From: a virus
Reading direction: 5' to 3' (one strand)
DNA length: 35,471 nt
Virus genome (UHGV): UHGV-0047541
Position 1 is the first letter of the stretch. Every line of letters starts with the position of its first letter. Under the pieces are notes generated by a model that made no database searches, was not told the DNA's origin, and saw nothing but the letters and a program-made list of their open reading frames with translations. The translations under genes and the position numbers were made by a program. Shown here piece by piece: positions 4,483-12,553 of this stretch.

Positions 4483-5057
4483 CGCTTTATTACCATCCTC
4501 AGTTGATGCTGCAGCGCATAGCCCAGCTCTTTCGGAAGACGTTCACGCCGTATCCGCTCAATATTTTGTTTAAACGCCGTGGTCAGCGGCACCGCCATCG
4601 GGATTTTCACCACATCAATGGGGTAACGGTTTTTTCCGGCCACACGCTGCATGACATGCCACCGGCCATTTTTCAGTTGCTGAATAAACGCGCCGGGAAT
4701 ACGACGGTTACCCACCACAAGCACGCTGCCGCCACCTTTCAGGGATGAACGCTGCCCCTTTTTACGACGCCTGCGGCGCGAAAGGACAACCCGCGCATTA
4801 CCCAGCTTGATTACGGGCAAATCCCCCCGGTTAACTTTGATTCTGGCCTGCGGATTTTTGACCGTGGCCCTTTTCAGCCTGGCCCTTTCCTTTACCAGTT
4901 TCCGGCGTACCTTTGTCTCACGGGCAACCTGTGACGCCGACTGCGATATCGCGGATGACGCAACGCGGTTAATGGCCATTGCGGCGGCACCAGGCACCGC
5001 CGTTTTGCTGATACGGCTGAGGTTTTCAACGGCCTGCTCAAGACCTTTTATGACCAT
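4479..5057 (-). CDS. Z: tail completion protein Z
   Basis: 192 aa, lambda gpZ-like; position between FII and U. Confidence 0.85.
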   Translation of the reverse strand: MVIKGLEQAVENLSRISKTAVPGAAAMAINRVASSAISQSASQVARETKVRRKLVKERARLKRATVKNPQARIKVNRGDLPVIKLGNARVVLSRRRRRKKGQRSSLKGGGSVLVVGNRRIPGAFIQQLKNGRWHVMQRVAGKNRYPIDVVKIPMAVPLTTAFKQNIERIRRERLPKELGYALQHQLRMVIKR

Positions 5058-5068
5058 ACATCCCCCTT

Positions 5069-5422
5069 TCAGCGGCGACGGTTAACGGCAGGCGGTACGC
5101 CCCGTCCAAGCCAGAGATGACAACTTCCGCCATCATCCGGCGAAACCCGGTCCACCCAGAAATTTTCCTCACCGATGGTCAGCGTGTCTCCACGCCGCAG
5201 CTGCCGCACCTCATCAGTCCGGACAAACAGGGACGGGCTGGAGCCTTCAACGCGCACGCCCTGTCCGGCATAGCTGATATTTTCAGGGTCATCAAAAACA
5301 CCACGTATCACCGCACCTGACTGCTCACCGGATGTCATGGTGGCTGACGTTCCCATGTACCCGCGTATCGTTTCATCGGCGCGGGCAATGGCAGCATCGA
5401 ACAGGTTATCGAAATCAGCCAC
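5069..5422 (-). CDS. FII: head-tail joining protein FII
   Basis: 117 aa, MADFDNLFDAAIARADETIRGYMGTSATMTSGEQSGAVIRGVFDDPENISYAGQGVRVEG..., near-identical to lambda FII. Confidence 0.9.
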   Translation of the reverse strand: MADFDNLFDAAIARADETIRGYMGTSATMTSGEQSGAVIRGVFDDPENISYAGQGVRVEGSSPSLFVRTDEVRQLRRGDTLTIGEENFWVDRVSPDDGGSCHLWLGRGVPPAVNRRR

Positions 5423-5433
5423 AGCGCCTCCCG

Positions 5434-5832
5434 TTATTGCATTCTGGCCAGGCCATGTTCTGTCATTTCGGCTGCCACACTGACAGAGACACGAAACGCC
5501 GTTCCCGGCAGTACAAAAGCCACAGGCTCATCCCGCGTGGCGTGAAGTGCATCAGTATGCAGCGTCACCAGTGCCACGACCGTGACCAGAGCAGCCGTAT
5601 CAGTCACGGTATCCGGCTGCGCTGATACCACCTCATTTTCATGCCCGGTCAGCACATTTTCCCGGCTGAGAGGGGTGTCCTGACCGGAAGTTTCATCCGT
5701 GTCATCAAGCTCCTCTTCCAGCTCTGCCACACGCTGTGCAATATCTGCCGCACTTCCTGACATATCAGGTTCACGTCCCAGCAACTCTGATAGTTCTTTC
5801 AGGCGTTTCAGATTCTCGTCTTTCTTTGCCAT
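5434..5832 (-). CDS. FI: DNA packaging protein FI
   Basis: 132 aa; C-terminal half (ELEEELDDTDETSGQDTPLSRENVLTGHENEV...HTDALHATRDEPVAFVLPGTAFRV) matches lambda FI. Confidence 0.85.
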   Translation of the reverse strand: MAKKDENLKRLKELSELLGREPDMSGSAADIAQRVAELEEELDDTDETSGQDTPLSRENVLTGHENEVVSAQPDTVTDTAALVTVVALVTLHTDALHATRDEPVAFVLPGTAFRVSVSVAAEMTEHGLARMQ

Positions 5833-5884
5833 ATCTGTTTCCGGTTGAATAAAAAAGGGGGTATATCACCCCCCCGGTTATATG

Positions 5885-6913
5885 TTATTTCACCTGTACC
5901 ACTACGAACTCATCCGGATCAGGGAGTACCATCAGCGGCGCGGACTGCGTCATGGTGAATTCACGGGCGGGATCACCCACTGTCATCCAGTGTTTCGGGT
6001 AACGGGAAGAAGCCACCACACCTTCCGACAACGCCTGCGCATCCTGAATGGCACCGTAACAACGGATCCCATCTGCAGCAGTATTCCCCAGGACCAGCGT
6101 GCCATCTGGCAGATAACGTTTTTCGGTACCATCCTCTGATACATAAGACGTTTTCGCCACCACAATGGCCAGATCGCCGTAATACCCCTTGAAGGACACC
6201 ACTGCGCCCAGATCTTTCACTGCCGTTTCGAGTTGTGAATTTGAACCGCGACGGGTATCCAGTTTTTCGCGAAACAGCTTAAAACCATTCAGCAGACGCC
6301 AGACGGTACCGTCCATGATGGCAATATTCACAAGACCGCTGGCCTGGTCGCAGTAGAGGTCAATATCATGTGTAGGATCGAACGTGTCACGATCCTGTTT
6401 TGACCATTCCTTACCGCTACCCTGTGTGATGTTATTCTTCGTCGACCTGCCAAAATCGACCTCAATTTTCTCGAACTGGTCTCCTTCCATGGTGTATTTG
6501 CCATACAACACAGCATTTACCGCCTGCATTTCTTCCACCTGGACAATCGCGTGCTCTTCCTGTTTGAGGTTATCGGTAATGATACGCAGACGGCGGTAAG
6601 CCGGATCGTTCAGTTGAGATGGATCTTCACCAGGAAGGCGCTCAACCGCCTGCTGGTAATTAAATTCGTGTTTCGGCTTGACGTAGCCCGGACGCAACAC
6701 GCGGGTTTCACCACCACGATGACGCAGCACTTTTCCTTCAACAACCGGGGAGACATAGGCCGCCACCGGCGTTTTTCCGGTAATTTTGTCCAGCATCACC
6801 TCTTCGGTCTGGAAATTCACCGTACGGCGGAAAAACAGCTCCAGAAACAGCGCACGAAATTTAACTTTTTGTTCGGTATAACCGAGCAACTGGCGGGTCG
6901 TAAACAATCCCAT
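5885..6913 (-). CDS. E: major capsid protein E
   Basis: 342 aa, lambda gpE-like (PGYVKPKHE, KEWSK, DTRRGSNS, TVGDPAREFTM, SAPLM motifs). Confidence 0.9.
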   Translation of the reverse strand: MGLFTTRQLLGYTEQKVKFRALFLELFFRRTVNFQTEEVMLDKITGKTPVAAYVSPVVEGKVLRHRGGETRVLRPGYVKPKHEFNYQQAVERLPGEDPSQLNDPAYRRLRIITDNLKQEEHAIVQVEEMQAVNAVLYGKYTMEGDQFEKIEVDFGRSTKNNITQGSGKEWSKQDRDTFDPTHDIDLYCDQASGLVNIAIMDGTVWRLLNGFKLFREKLDTRRGSNSQLETAVKDLGAVVSFKGYYGDLAIVVAKTSYVSEDGTEKRYLPDGTLVLGNTAADGIRCYGAIQDAQALSEGVVASSRYPKHWMTVGDPAREFTMTQSAPLMVLPDPDEFVVVQVK

Positions 6914-6969
6914 AAATCAGTTCCTTCATTCAGAAATAAGTCAGGCCACCGCAGTGGCCTGATAATGTG

Positions 6970-7317
6970 TTACGGCAGCGCCGCATGACTCAGGGCACTG
7001 CCGGAAAAGGCGTTGGCCTTTTTGTGTTCATCCACACTCTCAGGCCAGTGAATTGCCTCCGTCGCAAAAGTCCCCGACTTGTAATACGTCAGTACCGTCT
7101 CTGTGCCTTCAAGCGGCAGTACCAGTATGCCAACCGCACCACCGGCTTTCTGTCCGTCCCAGACCACCAGTTTCCCGGTGGCCTCATCCAGCATCAGAGG
7201 CGTCAGAGCCGGTGTCGCCGAGGAAATCCCGCTGCTACCTGTGGCTGTATGAGCCGGATCATTACCGGAAAAAATACGTACTTCCGCACGCTGTTAAGTG
7301 ATGGTTTTCGTTACCAT
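6970..7317 (-). pseudogene. D: head decoration protein D homolog interrupted by an in-frame TAA at codon 8; an N-terminally truncated 74-aa product could start at 7194
   Basis: Minus strand from ATG 7317: M V T K T I T TAA(7296-7294) Q R A E V R I F S G N D P A H T A T ... continuing in the same frame into the lambda D-like body (SGNDPAHTAT, KSGTF). Confidence 0.6.
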
Positions 7318-7353
7318 ATTATTAAAACCTCATATTGATGATCAGCAGTGGCT

Positions 7354-8859
7354 TTATGGCATGGCCATGAGCATTTTTACGTCCGCATCACCGTCTGCTG
7401 ACGTTTGTGACATGCCGCCCTGCACCGCTGCCGGTGAATGGTTCGCCATGAAACGTTCAAACATGGATGTCGTGGAGGCAGAGACTGGTTCAGCTTTACC
7501 TGATGCAGCAGCCAGTACAGCCCGGGCATTCTCCACGGACATCCCCGGGCAGGCCGCCAGTTTTTCAGCCTGCGCCTCAGCCCCTTTCGCCTCATCCAGG
7601 GCCATGATTTGATCACGGAGTGATAGTCCGGCATCCGCCCGTGGTGAAGCAGCCAGGATCGGGCGGGCTTTTTCCACTGTCATATCCGGCATCGCCGCCA
7701 GCGTTGCAGCCAGTTGTTCACGACCTTTCGCTTCTTCACACGCCATAATGCGATCGGCTTCACTCAGCGGGGATGCCTCCGGCTGCTGCGGTGCCGCCGC
7801 TGCCAGAATCGCCCGGGCCTGCTCAACGCTCATTCCCTGTTGTCCTGCCAGCATCGAGGCAAGCTGTTCACGTCCTTTCGCTTCCTGGCATGTCAGGATC
7901 CCCATCACTCGCTGGTTCTCCTGCGCGACGGCTTCCGTTGCAGTTAATTGCGGCATAGTGCCTCCTGTATCATGTGTGTTCAGCGTCGCGGCCATCACGC
8001 TGATGGCATCCGACGCATTGATTAATTCATCCGCCAGCCCGGCCTCAATACCTGACTGCCCTTCAAAAACAGCGGCCTCTGTCCCCATAACCGTATCCAC
8101 AGATAAACCGGTATACATCGCCACTTTTTCAGCAAACATCCGGCGCGCCGCATCAATGCGCTGCTGCATGTCCTGGCGAACCTCTGACGGCAGGGATTCA
8201 AACTGATTGCCATCCACCTTGTGCGATCCGGCGTAAATAAGCGTGATATCAACACCGGCCTGCGCCAGATGACCGGCATAGCTGACATGGCTCATCATCA
8301 CACCAATGGAGCCGATACGTGATGTCTGGGTAATCAGCCGTCGGGAACAGGCCGATGCCAGCAGCATTGCGGCAGAACAGGCCGTGTCATTGCACAGCGC
8401 CCAGACAGGCTTCTGCTGCCGGAGGCGGTAAATCATGTCAGCGCAGTCAAACGCGCCGGCGGCCTGCCCACCAGGGCTGTCAATATCCAGCAGTACACCC
8501 CGCACCTGGGTATCCGACATTGCCTGCTGAAGACAGGCGACAATGCCGTCATAACCTGTCATTCCGGAAAATGGCCGCATCCCCCCCAGCCGGTGCACCA
8601 GCGTGCCTGTCACCGGCAGTACAGCAATACCATTCACCACCCTGTAAACACGGGCCGGTCGTTTTCCTCCGGCCATGTACTCGTCCGTTTCAGCCAGCAT
8701 CCCGGGAGCATCAAGCTGTACCTGCTGTTGCGGTACCGAAAGACTTGTCGCACCCATCTCACGCCCCAGCGCGCAAAAGAAAACCCGCGCATAGGCGGGC
8801 TCCAGAAGCAGCGGTTCATTGAATGCTGCTGCAATAATGTGTGAAAGATTACGTCTCAC
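7354..8859 (-). CDS. C: capsid assembly protease C with nested scaffold (Nu3-like) C-terminal region
   Basis: 501 aa; N-terminal and S49-peptidase-like core similar to lambda gpC; C-terminal three-fold repeat of EAKGREQLA...GMSVEQARAILAAA-type motif. Confidence 0.85.
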   Translation of the reverse strand: MRRNLSHIIAAAFNEPLLLEPAYARVFFCALGREMGATSLSVPQQQVQLDAPGMLAETDEYMAGGKRPARVYRVVNGIAVLPVTGTLVHRLGGMRPFSGMTGYDGIVACLQQAMSDTQVRGVLLDIDSPGGQAAGAFDCADMIYRLRQQKPVWALCNDTACSAAMLLASACSRRLITQTSRIGSIGVMMSHVSYAGHLAQAGVDITLIYAGSHKVDGNQFESLPSEVRQDMQQRIDAARRMFAEKVAMYTGLSVDTVMGTEAAVFEGQSGIEAGLADELINASDAISVMAATLNTHDTGGTMPQLTATEAVAQENQRVMGILTCQEAKGREQLASMLAGQQGMSVEQARAILAAAAPQQPEASPLSEADRIMACEEAKGREQLAATLAAMPDMTVEKARPILAASPRADAGLSLRDQIMALDEAKGAEAQAEKLAACPGMSVENARAVLAAASGKAEPVSASTTSMFERFMANHSPAAVQGGMSQTSADGDADVKMLMAMP

Positions 8860-10441
8860 GTGGTGTTGTCTCCTCTTCCGGCCTGCGACTCTCCGCTATC
8901 TGCTGCTGATACGCCTGCGCTATCCACACCGGGCGTGAGAGCCCGGCTTTTTCCCGCTCTGCAGATTCCCTGACCTGCTGGCGGAAAATGTCCTGATAAT
9001 CCTCACCCATCAGCGCCAGCTCTTTCTCATACGTGCTCAGTCCGGCCTCAATGCGCATCACCGACTCCTGAACCTCCTTGAGTCCATCAATGGCCATTCT
9101 TCCGGAGCCAATCCACTCTGCCCGTGACCAGGCTGAACGCGCCTGATAAAAATCAAAACGCGCCCGTGGCGGACGAATAATCCCCCGAAGAAGCGCCTCT
9201 TCCAGCCAGCAGGAAAACATCTGCGTGGCCAGCCGGGACGCAATAAATTTTCGTCGCCCCATAAAATAACGCCACGACTCATTGGCTGAGGCACGGGCAC
9301 TTGAGTAACTGACCTTCGAGTAATCACGGGACAACTGTTCGTAGGAAACACCAAGACCGGCGGCGATATACCGCAGCAGCGCCTGTTCAAGCGCAGAAAA
9401 TCCATTATCTGAATCCTGCGCAGTCTGCAGTTTCAAATCATCCCCGGGGAAAAGGTGCGGAATTTTGACACCGCCCAGCGTCACGTTATTCGTGTCATAC
9501 CAGCGGGTGAACTTCTCCAGAATATTAATGAGCGGATTATCCTGCTGACTCTGCGGTGCACCCGCGATATATTCAAAGGCCTTTTCGGTATCGAGTTCAC
9601 TTTCAATCGTCGCTGCATACATCGCCTTCACTATGGCCGACTGAAGCTGCGTGGTCTGCAGGGAATCGAGCATTTTCAGCCGTTCCATGACGCTGTAAAA
9701 CTGATTAGCCCCACGGGTCTGCCCGTCCTCAACCGGCTCGAAAATATGCAGCATGGCCGGACGCCCGGTGGGAAGTTCACGCGGGATCCGTTCCCATCGT
9801 CCACGACCAGAGAACGGAAAATCATCCTCACAGATATGGTACGCAACGGCCCGTCCATACCGATCGACTTCCACCCCGGCCCGCAGGAAACGGTTACCCA
9901 TACCGTGTCCCGGCGTGTCCACCCGTTTAGGGCTCACGGCTTTAAAACGCGTGCGGAATAACCGTGTGGTTTCCGTATCCCAGACCGGCTGCACAAAGAT
10001 TTCACCGTTAAATGCATGAACGCCCACACCTTCACGGATAAATTCCGTAAAGGTGCGTTTCCCTTCCACATCGATCTCGCCAAACATTCCTTCCGCGTAT
10101 TCCGACCAGGCCGCCTCCACCTCATCGACAAAGATTTTTGCCGCGGACTCCCGCATCCCAAGCCAGCGCCAGTTCGGACGGTAACTAATAAGAAACATGT
10201 GCCCGACAATGTGATCCTTATGCAGGGCCACCGCATTGGCCGCTATACCGTTATTGCGTACCAGATCATCTGCACGGGCATTCCCCAGACGCAACGCAGG
10301 CAGCAGGGCAGCATCAACACCCTGCGCCGGTGGTAACCACTCGGCCATTTGCCCGCCAAATCCTGCGCCGCCCCCGTTGTAGCTGAGACTCTCACGAAGC
10401 GGAACGCCGTTCACATCAATCAGGACTGGCGTTCGTTTCAT
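8849..10441 (-). CDS. B: portal protein B
   Basis: 530 aa, lambda gpB-like length, position and sequence. Confidence 0.9.
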   Translation of the reverse strand: MKRTPVLIDVNGVPLRESLSYNGGGAGFGGQMAEWLPPAQGVDAALLPALRLGNARADDLVRNNGIAANAVALHKDHIVGHMFLISYRPNWRWLGMRESAAKIFVDEVEAAWSEYAEGMFGEIDVEGKRTFTEFIREGVGVHAFNGEIFVQPVWDTETTRLFRTRFKAVSPKRVDTPGHGMGNRFLRAGVEVDRYGRAVAYHICEDDFPFSGRGRWERIPRELPTGRPAMLHIFEPVEDGQTRGANQFYSVMERLKMLDSLQTTQLQSAIVKAMYAATIESELDTEKAFEYIAGAPQSQQDNPLINILEKFTRWYDTNNVTLGGVKIPHLFPGDDLKLQTAQDSDNGFSALEQALLRYIAAGLGVSYEQLSRDYSKVSYSSARASANESWRYFMGRRKFIASRLATQMFSCWLEEALLRGIIRPPRARFDFYQARSAWSRAEWIGSGRMAIDGLKEVQESVMRIEAGLSTYEKELALMGEDYQDIFRQQVRESAEREKAGLSRPVWIAQAYQQQIAESRRPEEETTPRET

Positions 10442-10641
10442 AACCTCACTCCCAGCGGGCGACGGCGGCGGGTTGTCCCCAGTACCGACTCCGCATCATT
10501 GATAGCACGATTAAGCTCATCCAGAGAGGCTGCCGTATATTCAATTCTGCGACCATCTTTCTGGACCGACACCACCCGTTTACCGGTTAATAAATCAAGA
10601 CGCGCCTGACGCAGCGCCTGCAGTTCAGCGACTGTTACCAT
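10438..10641 (-). CDS. W: head-tail joining protein W
   Basis: 67 aa, ...LLTGKRVVSVQKDGRRIEYTAASLDEL..., lambda gpW-like. Confidence 0.85.
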   Translation of the reverse strand: MVTVAELQALRQARLDLLTGKRVVSVQKDGRRIEYTAASLDELNRAINDAESVLGTTRRRRPLGVRL

Positions 10642-12553
10642 TCACTCCTCCGGACAGCTTCGCTGCCAGTTCTTCAAGGGTTGGCCGGGTCGTCTCTTCT
10701 TCCCGGGATTTTGCCAGTACAGCCAGATCAAGCTGCCAGCGTTGCACGGACACACGTAATGCTGCGTAGGCATACACCAGGCAGTCCAGCGCTTCGTTAC
10801 GCCGCTTTTTGTTATCCCACAGCAGGCGCATCTTTCCTTTTTCCCACTTCTCCACAAGCTCTTCCGCGACCAGTTGCTGCGCCTCTGTCTGCGAAAAAAT
10901 CTCCGGATTATCAGGAAAACGGATGGCATACGATGTGGCTTCATCTGCAGGTGTGGGACTGGCTTTCATACGGGCATAGAGAATTTCTTTTGCGGTGTCC
11001 GTCCCCACTTCACACAGATACAAGCCCCGCTGATTGCGGGTTTTCGGCATGGTGATCACCGGCTTGCCATAGACAGACGCACCTTTTACCGGTAGCACAC
11101 GGAAAACACCGTGTTTTTTTGACCTCTGGTAAACGATTTCGCCATCGATCCCCCCGGTGTCCCAGCAGACACGGGAAATAGTCATTTCGGTGCCATCCGC
11201 ATGGCGGTATTTTTTGTTAATCACCGCGTCCACACGTAACAGCGTCTCTTCCTCATCAGGACGCCCCATAATGATGATTTTATCCACCAGAAAAGCTTCC
11301 TCTCCCGGTGCCCATCCCCAGACATACATCTCAAAACGGTTTCGCTGCGAGTCAATGCCCGCCGTCAGATAAACCACCCGGTCAGGTACCGCCGCCGTGT
11401 AATGCACGACCTTATCCATCAGAACCTGGTGATCGAGTTTTTCGCCCACGGCCTCTTCCCAGGTCTCGCCCAGCGTGGTGTTCACAAAGGTTTTCAGGCC
11501 GTTGGGATCTTTCAGCGCATCCAGCCAGTCATAGACTATCTGTACCCAGGTGGTAAACGGGCTATAGGCCGTCCAGATGTGGAAAGTGATGGATCGCGGT
11601 GGCGGCATCTCCTCATCACCCGCGCTGTAAAATGTCAGGCCGTCACGTGTCCACATGCCCGTGTTTTCACAGATCCACCGCCCGTTATTCTGTTCAAGCT
11701 CAGACTGATGGATCACACAGCCATGATGCTCACAAAGGTAGAAAACACTTTCTGGCTTATTCTTCTCCCACTTAAGACCGAAAAGCGAGGCATCATCGCC
11801 AAATTTCAGATACTGCTCCTCCCCACAGTGCGGACAGGGCACATAAAAACGCATGAAATGTGCCGACTCGTTAGCGGCTTTTTCGATCTGGCAGGAGCCT
11901 TTGATTTTAGGCGTCGAGCCGCGAATGGATTTTGGCCATACAGAGCCCTCAATACGCTTATCCCCCAGCAGGGTTGGCGAGCCCTCTTTTTCGACATCCG
12001 GCTCGAACGAGGAAAGTTCGTCATAGCAGACCACGTCCACGGATTTTTCACGGTAGTTTTTGGCGGCAGCGCCGCCCAGGCACCAGAAGCCCACACCCGA
12101 TGAAAAGCGTTTCAGCGTGAGAGTATTGTCACGATGTTTACGACCCAGCCATGGGGAAAGGTCTTTCAGGCATGGCACGTCCCGAATCGTCGCCTCCACG
12201 TGAGACTTCATAAAATCTTCAGCGGCAGAATCCGTGGGCTGAAAAAGCAGACTGTTTCGGGATTTATGCTCAATAAAATATCCGACCACCCCCAGCAACA
12301 TCTTTGTATAGCCAACACGGGCAGATTTAATCAGATTAACAGTGCGGATCTGATCATTCCCCATGCTGTTCATGATGGCGATCTGGAATGGCAGCGTTTT
12401 CCATTCTCCCTCACCATATGAAGATTCTTTCGGCAGATAATAATTTTGATCAGCCCATTCAACTGGCGTCACCGGCAATGCCCTTATCAGGGGCTGTAAT
12501 GCTGTTGTGACAGCGCTCATCATATTATTCAGTTGTTGCTCTGATATATTCAT
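10625..12553 (-). CDS. A: terminase large subunit A
   Basis: ORF 10625-12610; probable start is the internal MNISEQQL (12553), matching lambda A MNISNSQ; rest highly similar to lambda gpA. Confidence 0.9.
   Translation of the reverse strand: MNISEQQLNNMMSAVTTALQPLIRALPVTPVEWADQNYYLPKESSYGEGEWKTLPFQIAIMNSMGNDQIRTVNLIKSARVGYTKMLLGVVGYFIEHKSRNSLLFQPTDSAAEDFMKSHVEATIRDVPCLKDLSPWLGRKHRDNTLTLKRFSSGVGFWCLGGAAAKNYREKSVDVVCYDELSSFEPDVEKEGSPTLLGDKRIEGSVWPKSIRGSTPKIKGSCQIEKAANESAHFMRFYVPCPHCGEEQYLKFGDDASLFGLKWEKNKPESVFYLCEHHGCVIHQSELEQNNGRWICENTGMWTRDGLTFYSAGDEEMPPPRSITFHIWTAYSPFTTWVQIVYDWLDALKDPNGLKTFVNTTLGETWEEAVGEKLDHQVLMDKVVHYTAAVPDRVVYLTAGIDSQRNRFEMYVWGWAPGEEAFLVDKIIIMGRPDEEETLLRVDAVINKKYRHADGTEMTISRVCWDTGGIDGEIVYQRSKKHGVFRVLPVKGASVYGKPVITMPKTRNQRGLYLCEVGTDTAKEILYARMKASPTPADEATSYAIRFPDNPEIFSQTEAQQLVAEELVEKWEKGKMRLLWDNKKRRNEALDCLVYAYAALRVSVQRWQLDLAVLAKSREEETTRPTLEELAAKLSGGVNGNSR

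Follow-up and report, generated by a model that had tools for sequence, protein, structure and literature searches.

The gene examined here, in a 35,471-nt stretch of virus genome UHGV-0047541 (the window, numbered from its first nucleotide), belongs to a lambdoid E. coli prophage and is the lambda C/Nu3 head gene in its phage 21-type version. Its 501-aa product carries three tandem units of ~40 aa in the C-terminal region (Table 1). Sequence comparison identifies this triple repeat as the phage 21 "Tri box" repeat, which is already known and ordinary. Taking all lines of evidence together, we read it as a phage 21-type C/Nu3 gene whose three Tri units are likely capsid-binding scaffold modules, a joint reading to which we assign a probability of roughly 0.55.

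Three units in the scaffold part of the head protease gene

PHROG 53 ("head maturation protease") aligned with the 501-aa protein end to end (E = 7e-224), and Pfam assigned Peptidase_S49 (PF01343) at E = 1e-34, with 120 bits vs. a cutoff of 24.9. A sequence search of the PDB returned nothing but SppA (3rst/4kwb, E about 1e-15), matching the protease part only; no match to the scaffold part was found. Ser162, the predicted nucleophile, pairs with lambda Ser166 in a C-S-A motif; both the serine and the motif are invariant in alignment A1. Lambda gpC Ser166 reportedly has a catalytic role. The head operon runs in the order terminase, W, portal, C, decoration, major capsid, and the order portal/C/decoration/capsid is common to phage 21 and lambda. 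The prophage copy belongs to mouse-associated E. coli, its DNA being 99.9-100% identical to strains M8, RSHH22, and SK6988; the RefSeq entry of M8 labels the identical ORF "S49 family peptidase".

Table 1. Features of the repeat-bearing gene and its neighbors (positions in the window)
Feature	Position	Strand	Basis or remark
Portal gene	8849..10441	minus	C gene 8859 end overlaps portal gene end
Head maturation protease/scaffold gene (lambda C / phage 21 gene 5 ortholog)	7354..8859	minus	ORF, 501 aa, GTG start
S49 (SppA-like) serine protease domain, aa 146-292	7984..8424	minus	Pfam PF01343 Peptidase_S49
Shine-Dalgarno AGGAGG, 4 nt upstream of nested ATG	7961..7966	minus	Encoded by conserved Gly-Gly codons
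Nested in-frame ORF for the scaffold, 200 aa from Met302 to the stop (equivalent of phage 21 gene 6 / lambda Nu3)	7354..7956	minus	ATG 7954-7956
Repeat unit 1 (U1), aa 317-357, RVMGILTCQEAKGREQLASMLAGQQGMSVEQARAILAAAAP	7789..7911	minus	HMM domain 1, i-E = 1.1e-24; phage 21 Tri1 box equivalent
Repeat unit 2 (U2), aa 369-406, DRIMACEEAKGREQLAATLAAMPDMTVEKARPILAASP	7642..7755	minus	HMM domain 2, i-E = 3.2e-26; phage 21 second "Tri box" equivalent
Repeat unit 3 (U3), aa 415-453, RDQIMALDEAKGAEAQAEKLAACPGMSVENARAVLAAAS	7501..7617	minus	HMM domain 3, i-E = 5.3e-24; phage 21 Tri3 box equivalent
C-terminal tail, aa 454-501 (48 aa)	7357..7500	minus	Alignment A1; two predicted short helices
Decoration gene	6970..7317	minus	Head operon
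Major capsid gene	5885..6913	minus	Head operon

The preliminary description had proposed a threefold repeat in the C-terminal region of this C homolog, and a self-diagonal scan, shuffled controls, and a unit HMM agree on it. The HMM recovered exactly three domains (i-Evalue of each about 1e-24). In the scan the units lie in register on diagonals offset by 50, 47, and 97 aa, which score 68, 55, and 61 (20-aa window); the next-best diagonal scored 33. Local BLOSUM62 scores of unit against unit were 92-107, compared with 25 +/- 5 for the shuffles (n = 2000, maximum 64), giving z = 13-17. Three single-unit profiles, PHROG 8399, 8940, and 17040, each matched the C-terminal region three times. The repeat had been placed at 7354-7800, an interval that does hold the tail, U3, and U2 but takes in only 12 nt of U1; the whole array occupies 7501..7911. 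About 17 invariant residues are kept in every unit (E, A, K/G, G, E, A, L, A, M, V, E, A, R, L, A, A). Among the domain libraries only PHROGs recognize the unit, with no mapped function: Pfam has no family for it (best match DUF7178, E = 0.31), and an NCBIfam search of the C-terminal 192 aa gave no match.

The triple repeat is visible at the protein level only. Tandem Repeats Finder detected no tandem repeat in the DNA, and the short direct repeats of the region (12-15 nt) form chance-sized families only. Between units the nucleotide identity is 60-68%, with third-position identity of 0.37-0.49.

An internal GGAGG-ATG at Met302 very probably yields a 200-aa scaffolding protein, the gp6/Nu3 equivalent, besides the 501-aa protein. 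We infer this nested translation because the start is conserved and is annotated in phage 21. GGAGG followed by 4-5 nt and ATG is kept in this prophage, phage 21, Gifsy-1, lambda, mEp237, and mEp332, and the nested Met is invariant in five three-unit lineages. Met302 corresponds to the annotated start of phage 21 gene 6 (M81255 5475..6077) and of the "scaffolding protein" in OL657228, and both phage 21 records have a ribosome-binding site annotated there. In GenBank J02459, lambda nu3 starts at a different Met (aa 239); that start was ruled out for the prophage protein, where the residue is Ile235.

A single-sequence AlphaFold run on the whole protein gave a poor model (mean pLDDT 46) and was replaced by an alignment-based AlphaFold2 model of the scaffold part (19 sequences). 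In the latter each unit is modeled as a module of 3-4 helices at pLDDT 75-83 (about 80 for unit 1), the linkers have low confidence, and the pTM is 0.28; the tail helices lie at scaffold residues 160-173 and 191-196. The model suggests that the units may be small helical modules that fold independently, strung like beads on flexible linkers. A Foldseek search with the scaffold model (pLDDT 69) against 350,542 PDB chains found none at E <= 0.001 (best E = 3.2), the query being a whole chain of low pTM and the search insensitive for a 40-aa module. Against BFVD there was likewise no significant match, the only sensible ones being homologous S49 proteins at E = 0.39 or worse.

Relatives, age, and number of units

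The gpC homolog of Salmonella Gifsy-1, STM2605, has three positionally orthologous units in the same order, together with the nested Met and its Shine-Dalgarno sequence. The Gifsy-1 protein is 63% identical to the prophage protein over its whole length. Unit by unit the identity is 76%, 79%, and 62%, and between units inside one protein it is 46-59%. Related enterobacterial prophage proteins (P0123, P0124, P0273-P0290, P0303, and P0313) have the same three units, nested Met, and Shine-Dalgarno sequence. In Gifsy-1 and the related proteins the scaffold part is only 45-74% identical, and neither the lengths of the linkers nor the C-terminal tails are the same; five lineages at 48-62% identity align colinearly and have three units each. 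The triplication must be old because the units are orthologous in Gifsy-1 and other lineages and third codon positions are near-random between units. The alignments indicate an ancient triplication that selection has maintained at the level of the protein.

A second E. coli lineage (P0271, P0127, P0132, and P0134) carries four units in an S49 protease-scaffold protein that is 47% identical to the prophage scaffold. Its units (GDQIMALPEAKGREQLAQALAEQPGMTV.QAK.LLAAAP) are almost alike, whereas those of the prophage are old and diverged, and their near-identity points to recent expansion or homogenization. Beyond these lineages, a unit profile search of 1.84 billion proteins gave 530 cluster representatives, nearly all of them either short scaffold-sized proteins or fusions of S49 protease and scaffold in which 30-90 aa separate the unit from the C-terminus. 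Among the best 150 of the 530, one unit was found in 131, two in 14, and three in 5.

Within E. coli the gene is common. A near-full-length copy was present in 1865 of 5426 complete genomes, the 1504-nt span recurs in complete genomes throughout the species, and the three-unit 501-aa version is the commonest form. Other alleles differ in length and unit number: 451/452 aa (2 units), 482 aa (2.5), and 551 aa (4). The 482-aa allele, in which the second half of unit 2 is deleted, is itself common (3592 blocks of the assembly index, at least 1000 contigs). In the head modules of the variant alleles the portal, the protease part, and the capsid protein are 96-99% identical (capsid protein 97-99%). 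Unit-number change appears to be tolerated in prophages, because alleles of 2, 2.5, 3, and 4 units adjoin an essentially unchanged capsid protein; unequal recombination between units would alter their number. Database proteins of 657 aa (six units), 577 aa, and 721 aa resemble larger duplications or fusions with tail-fiber sequence.

Possible roles of the units

We infer that the likeliest role of the unit is that of a repeated interaction module of a Nu3-type scaffold, probably binding the capsid protein. The scaffold part comprises three tandem copies of the conserved lambda Nu3 core module followed by the 48-aa tail. While the procapsid assembles, each unit would most likely contact the major capsid protein at its inner face or N-arm, and the protease would bind likewise through the shared C-terminus. 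A phage 21-type scaffold would then be trivalent and the lambda scaffold monovalent, and once assembly is complete the protease would break the scaffold down, as it does in lambda. Helical or helix-turn-helix motifs bind capsid protein in the scaffolds of P22, phi29, SPP1, and 80-alpha (PMC11565965; PMC11922011). For lambda, a Nu3-E interaction was reported in the yeast two-hybrid system at the level of the proteins rather than mapped to the unit (PMC3224144).

Some observations weigh against capsid binding by the units themselves. The scaffold model has no significant match among solved structures or predicted viral ones. Nor do the units, unlike the P22 coat-binding domain, lie at the extreme C-terminus, and the conserved 48-aa tail behind them could instead be the real capsid-binding element; its end (...D..LL/LM..P) is conserved and common to the 501-aa protein and lambda. 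Moreover, the common 482-aa allele lacking half of unit 2 and the 2-unit alleles go with the same capsid protein; therefore unit number, and perhaps the integrity of the middle unit, is not critical, which fits a spacer role equally well. It is a tentative idea that the Tri units are independent capsid-binding mini-domains and that the allelic series is a ready-made experiment on scaffold valency, bearing on procapsid nucleation, fidelity, and size. If true, the series would run from 1 unit (lambda) through 2, 2.5, 3, and 4 (phage 21-type) to 4 near-identical units (the other lineage), and scaffold valency would evolve freely via unequal recombination.

A different assignment would make the units self-association modules for scaffold-scaffold and scaffold-protease contacts, three of them giving a stronger or differently oligomerizing scaffold core. 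Nu3-Nu3 and C-Nu3 interactions were detected by yeast two-hybrid in lambda and Nu3 dimers were confirmed independently (PMC3224144); the unit is the sole well-conserved, folded-looking part of Nu3 and, being common to C and Nu3, would explain their co-assembly. However, AlphaFold leaves the three units unpacked at the low pTM given above (a monomer model is blind to intermolecular contacts), and the Nu3-E interaction comes from the same source. We regard self-association as unlikely, though it is the most serious of the alternatives to capsid binding.

Still less likely is that the array serves mainly as a length or spacer element, its folded beads determining how far the scaffold core reaches or how much volume it fills, comparable to the ~45-aa disordered linker of lambda, with the specific capsid or portal contacts made by the tail and the N-terminal helix and with unit number nearly neutral. 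The spread of 2-, 2.5-, 3-, and 4-unit alleles, plus the six-unit oddity, alongside 97-99% identical capsid proteins is what a spacer would allow, as is the abundance of the 482-aa allele with its half-deleted unit 2; lambda, moreover, has one unit and a long low-complexity linker. Constraint on the units nevertheless exceeds the needs of a spacer, because the invariant residues persist in each of them and conservation across lineages is position by position despite saturated synonymous sites.

The units could also be imagined as portal-recruitment modules binding gpB/gp4, which would explain why B needs Nu3 to be built into procapsids; C-B and Nu3-B interactions are listed in a table of the lambda literature (PMC3224144). 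This is improbable, since scaffold copies per prohead far outnumber portal sites. The lambda prohead holds roughly 200 scaffold copies. Finally, that the repeat serves regulation or recombination as a DNA or RNA element is hardly credible: the two "CII binding site" features annotated in OL657228 gene 6 and the 12-15-nt direct repeats speak for it, but the DNA has no tandem repeat, the units diverge at near-random third positions while keeping invariant amino acids and an amino-acid identity of about 60%, and Salmonella Gifsy-1 and other lineages have conserved the array, which also recurs in complete genomes throughout E. coli. Recent slippage or an assembly artifact, considered together with it, was ruled out by the orthologous Gifsy-1 units and the saturated synonymous sites.

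Comparison with known scaffolds

Capsid binding by the Tri units finds only a functional analogy in the coat-binding helix-turn-helix of P22 gp8 (also phi29 gp7, 80-alpha, and SPP1); no similarity of the units to the P22-type coat-binding domain was detected in the PDB sequence search or by Foldseek. P22 has one such domain, placed at the extreme C-terminus, whereas the prophage has three units with a 48-aa tail behind them, and the unit of single-unit relatives has 30-90 aa behind it. The P22 scaffold is recycled; in the lambda type, the protease encoded with the scaffold degrades it. P2 gpO and Mu gpI/gpZ also have a protease that is either fused to the scaffold or overlaps it in frame, and a capsid-targeting C-terminus common to both products, but belong to other protease families or lineages than the lambda C type. 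The domains of P2 gpO have reportedly been mapped, and we know of no Tri-type repeat in P2 gpO or Mu gpI/gpZ.

Phage 21 itself provides the closest match. Its gp5 also has 501 aa and is 93% identical to the protein of the prophage in mouse-associated E. coli, gap-free and with about 36 scattered substitutions, and the unit HMM finds its domains at the same residues. The head gene operon record M81255, for which we take Smith & Feiss 1993 (Gene) to be the reference, marks a Tri1 box (5542-5645), a Tri box (5682-5792), and a Tri3 box (5823-5936) inside the nested gene 6, with the remark "function unknown; putative". In gp5 these boxes span aa ~324-358, 371-407, and 418-455 and match the three units. 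The neighbors agree too, with portal gene 4 upstream and the shp decoration gene and major capsid gene 7 downstream. Record OL657228 has two pattern-matched "CII binding site" features within gene 6. A literature search for the phage 21 Tri boxes found no description, and none was found in the searchable literature for a binding partner of the unit or for its copy-number polymorphism. Annotation of the repeat in phage 21 dates from the early 1990s, and about one complete E. coli genome in three has it; as a discovery it carries little weight.

As to lambda, the preliminary description had called the gene a lambda C homolog of 501 aa with a scaffold-encoding 3' part and lambda C the shorter protein, and this holds: gpC/gpNu3 (J02459 4418..5737) has 439 aa and is about 59% identical overall in alignment A1, with the same gene position and S49 protease domain. 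It had further supposed that lambda C/Nu3 contains internal repeats, and here the lambda sequence tells otherwise. The unit HMM finds one unit (aa 360-399), and the self-diagonal scan peaks at 28, which is noise (vs. 68 in the prophage protein), with no internal repeat. One unit each is found in lambda, mEp332, and mEp237. The prophage gene is thus a repeat-number variant of lambda as had been suggested, with three units vs. one. Its greater length is explained by repeat number only in part: the unit number differs, but a ~45-aa low-complexity linker rich in Ser/Thr/Ala/Gln/Asp, which lies between protease and unit in lambda, is also absent from the prophage protein. An expected effect on scaffold length is seen at the level of the sequence. 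Lambda has GGAGG-ATG at the homologous Met (aa 309), from which its scaffold ORF encodes 131 aa, vs. 200 aa in the prophage. Between the two proteins no part of the Nu3 region is better conserved than the unit (alignment A1), and the lambda ending (...LL..P) resembles that of the prophage protein. The comparison corrects the idea of lambda Nu3 as repetitive and singles out the one module that lambda-type scaffolds conserve. In nature the number of these modules ranges from 1 to 4 or more with the capsid protein unchanged, a range usable for a study of scaffold valency or for engineering lambda-like particles.

C gene and probable nested scaffold start

In the window, the portal, C, decoration and capsid genes follow the lambda B-C-D-E order. 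The C protein, a lambda C homolog, carries a Peptidase_S49 domain at aa 146-292 (Pfam, E = 1e-34), matches SppA structures at E about 1e-15 and is covered end to end by PHROG 53 ("head maturation protease"). The gene almost certainly encodes the protease of a lambda-like head together with its nested scaffold.

Coordinates of head genes, nested start and repeat units in the window, and of the Tri boxes in phage 21 record M81255
Feature	Position	Strand	Protein	Remark
Portal gene	8849..10441	-	530 aa	end overlapped by C ORF
C protein ORF	7354..8859	-	501 aa	GTG start
Decoration gene	6970..7317	-	115 codons	downstream of C gene
Major capsid gene, lambda-E-type	5885..6913	-	342 aa	downstream of C gene
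Shine-Dalgarno AGGAGG	7961-7966	-		4 nt upstream of nested ATG
Nested scaffold ATG	7954-7956	-	Met302	arranged as in phage 21 gene 6
Repeat array	7501..7911	-		three units
U1	7789-7911	-	aa 317-357
U2	7642-7755	-	aa 369-406
U3	7501-7617	-	aa 415-453
Tri1 box	M81255 5542-5645		gp5 aa 324-358	"function unknown; putative"
Tri box	M81255 5682-5792		gp5 aa 371-407	"function unknown; putative"
Tri3 box	M81255 5823-5936		gp5 aa 418-455	"function unknown; putative"

GGAGG, a 4-5 nt spacing and ATG are kept at the homologous nested site in Gifsy-1, lambda (Met309), mEp237 and mEp332, the Shine-Dalgarno sequence being encoded by an invariant Gly-Gly pair. Counted from this conserved Met, the scaffold ORF has 200 aa in the window, 197 in Gifsy-1 and 131 in lambda. 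GenBank J02459 begins lambda nu3 at Met239 (5132..5737, 201 aa). This residue is Ile in phage 21-type proteins, and the conserved GGAGG-ATG at lambda Met309 (5342) matches the annotated gene 6 start; the lambda and phage 21 GenBank annotations are thus inconsistent. A Met239-type start was ruled out in the window protein, where the residue is Ile235 and no start is possible. Protein work on lambda Nu3, and UniProt, reportedly put its start at Met309.

The window is 99.9-100% identical to prophages in mouse E. coli strains M8, RSHH22 and SK6988. M8 differs from window 4800-11500 at 29 positions, 26 of them inside ∼700 bp (4836-5518) across the Minor_tail_Z-type, head-tail joining (FII-like) and FI-like genes; this cluster resembles a short patch acquired by recombination. 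In the portal, C and capsid genes the two hardly differ. The decoration gene, a homolog of phage 21 shp and lambda D, is interrupted at codon 8 by an in-frame TAA (7294-7296; MVTKTIT-stop-QRAEV...), base 7296 being A in the window and C in M8 (GAA, Glu). The next in-frame ATG, at 7194, gives 74 aa only. The stop was absent from all 5426 complete E. coli genomes, where all 11 matches to window 7256-7336 had at least one mismatch. The TAA may reflect a prophage defective in head stabilisation, or a sequencing error.

The three-fold repeat and the phage 21 Tri boxes

Self-comparison of the C protein gave diagonals at offsets of 50, 47 and 97 aa with 20-aa window scores of 68, 55 and 61 (next best diagonal, 33). 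Pairwise local alignments of the units U1, U2 and U3 scored 92-107 vs. 25 ± 5 for shuffled units (2000 shuffles; maximum 64; z = 13-17). The unit HMM, a profile made from the repeat units, found exactly three domains, and PHROG profiles from single-unit scaffolds each matched the region three times. We concluded that the three-fold repeat in the 3' part of the gene, as proposed in the preliminary description, is real. The proposed span of 7354-7800 lies partly on the repeat; it takes in the 48-aa tail and omits nearly all of U1. TRF detected no repeat at the DNA level, the units sharing 60-68% of nucleotides (third positions only 0.37-0.49) and ∼60% of amino acids.

The end of the S49 region (aa 243-262, AEKVAMYTGLSVDTVMGTEA) weakly resembles U3 (aa 431-450, AEKLAACPGMSVENARAVLA; diagonal score 33), and its counterpart was touched by the unit HMM in Gifsy-1 (i-E 0.84) and mEp237 (i-E 0.08), neither significant. 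This likeness could hint that the module derived from C-terminal helices of the protease itself.

Phage records were searched by tblastn with the C protein, and phage 21 gene 5 was found to be 92.8% identical over all 501 residues in a gap-free alignment. The 8-kb head-operon record M81255 marks three repeat_regions in gene 5; these Tri1, Tri and Tri3 boxes correspond to U1, U2 and U3 and lie inside nested gene 6 (M81255 5475..6077, 200 aa, own putative RBS). The complete phage 21 genome of 2022, OL657228 (PMC9119081), labels the gene 5/6 pair "capsid protease/scaffolding protein" and, nested, "scaffolding protein." The repeat thus belongs to what is already known of phage 21-type head genes; it has stood in phage 21 annotation for three decades and is common to a third of E. 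coli genomes. Two "CII binding site" matches (ttgynnnnnnttgy; patterns only) fall in nested gene 6 at OL657228 1509-1522 and 1743-1756 (-), and one of the two is within the Tri region.

Modeled by AlphaFold from its own sequence alone, the full-length C protein gave a poor result; the 200-aa scaffold part, modeled with a 19-sequence alignment, averaged a pLDDT of 69. Each unit was modeled as a compact body of three to four short helices (pLDDT 75-83), with a ..RIM.. helix, an EAK turn, a ..LA..LA helix, a PGM(S/T) loop and a VE.AR.ILAAA helix. Since the modules are confident, the linkers of low confidence and pTM 0.28, the model suggests folded beads on a flexible string, and each unit is predicted to fold independently. 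Foldseek with the scaffold model found nothing significant in the PDB (best E = 3.2), and in BFVD the sensible matches were only homologous S49 proteins (E at least 0.39); neither library contains a solved structure of the module.

Age and copy number of the units

Of 5426 complete E. coli genomes, 2029 matched the C gene, 1865 of them across 80% or more of it. An evenly spaced sample of 60 records included 55 close matches; 52 had the 1503-1504 nt span of the three-unit form, and two spanned 1447 nt. Three units in the same order are present in Salmonella Gifsy-1 (63% overall identity) and in four more enterobacterial lineages (48-62% in the scaffold part). Between lineages, U1-U1 identity is 76-83%, U2-U2 79% and U3-U3 62%, vs. 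46-59% for units within one protein. The units are thus closer to their positional counterparts elsewhere than to their own neighbors, and the triplication is older than the lineage split. These comparisons indicate that selection on the protein kept the triplication while synonymous sites became saturated, and that each copy is under purifying selection.

Unit-number alleles in proteins sharing 78% or more identity with the C protein
Length	Units	Structure
451 aa	2	U1/U2 hybrid, junction within EAKGREQLA, then U3
452 aa	2	U1 joined to U2 linker, then U3
482 aa	2.5	U2 without second half; very abundant (3592 index blocks)
501 aa	3	window form
551 aa	4	additional U3/U2 hybrid unit
657 aa	6	single protein, 156-aa duplication

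Unit number thus continues to change. The junctions, read from sequence, are those expected from unequal recombination between units. In the 657-aa E. coli protein (P0001) the duplication runs from the protease-domain end through 2.5 units, giving six HMM matches. The 2-, 2.5- and 4-unit alleles sit in complete head modules. In portal, protease part and capsid protein these modules share 96-99% identity with the window and with each other, so that differences in unit number are not accompanied by a corresponding change in the capsid protein. This natural copy-number series, a small point, may be undescribed. Another E. coli prophage lineage (P0271, P0127, P0132 and P0134; 47% identical) has four tandem near-identical units, which points to recent expansion or to concerted evolution of the same module. 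P0083 (721 aa), P0087/P0088 (577 aa) and P0128 are C homologs intact through U3 (...AVLAAGSG), after which tail-fibre-like sequence replaces the normal tail; these fusions could be rearranged prophages or misassemblies.

Among 1.84 billion cluster representatives, the unit profile matched 530 proteins at E ≤ 0.001. The best 150 of these 530 have one unit in 131 cases, two in 14 and three in five, so that a single copy is usual and arrays arose on several occasions. Most are either S49 proteins of 415-500 aa, in which 30-90 aa separate the unit from the C-terminus, or proteins of 100-230 aa.

Possible role of the units and comparison with lambda

The alignments mark the repeat as a triplication of the one module conserved in lambda-type scaffolds. 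The scaffolds of P22, phi29, SPP1 and 80-alpha use helical or helix-turn-helix motifs to bind the capsid protein (PMC11565965; PMC11922011), and lambda Nu3 was reported to interact with E, C and itself (PMC3224144). By analogy, scaffold and protease would dock on the capsid-protein lattice by way of the units, each serving as an interaction module; the phage 21-type scaffold chain would be trivalent, and the protease would later degrade the scaffold. We hold this reading tentatively, at a probability of roughly 0.4.

The units could instead be self-association modules. A further alternative takes the array as a mostly neutral spacer, the real contacts lying in the 48-aa tail; it is favored chiefly by the fact that two to four units, and a middle unit lacking one half, are tolerated, and opposed chiefly by the position-specific conservation of every unit. 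Recruitment of the portal by the units is the last alternative.

Lambda C is 439 aa long, as previously noted (J02459 4418..5737). The internal repeats ascribed to lambda C/Nu3 in the preliminary description were not supported: the unit HMM found a single unit at aa 360-399, and the self-comparison peak of 28 is background. Aligned with lambda C, the window protein has two additional units after the first and lacks the ∼45-55-aa stretch rich in Ser, Thr, Ala, Gln and Asp that lies between protease and unit in lambda and mEp237.
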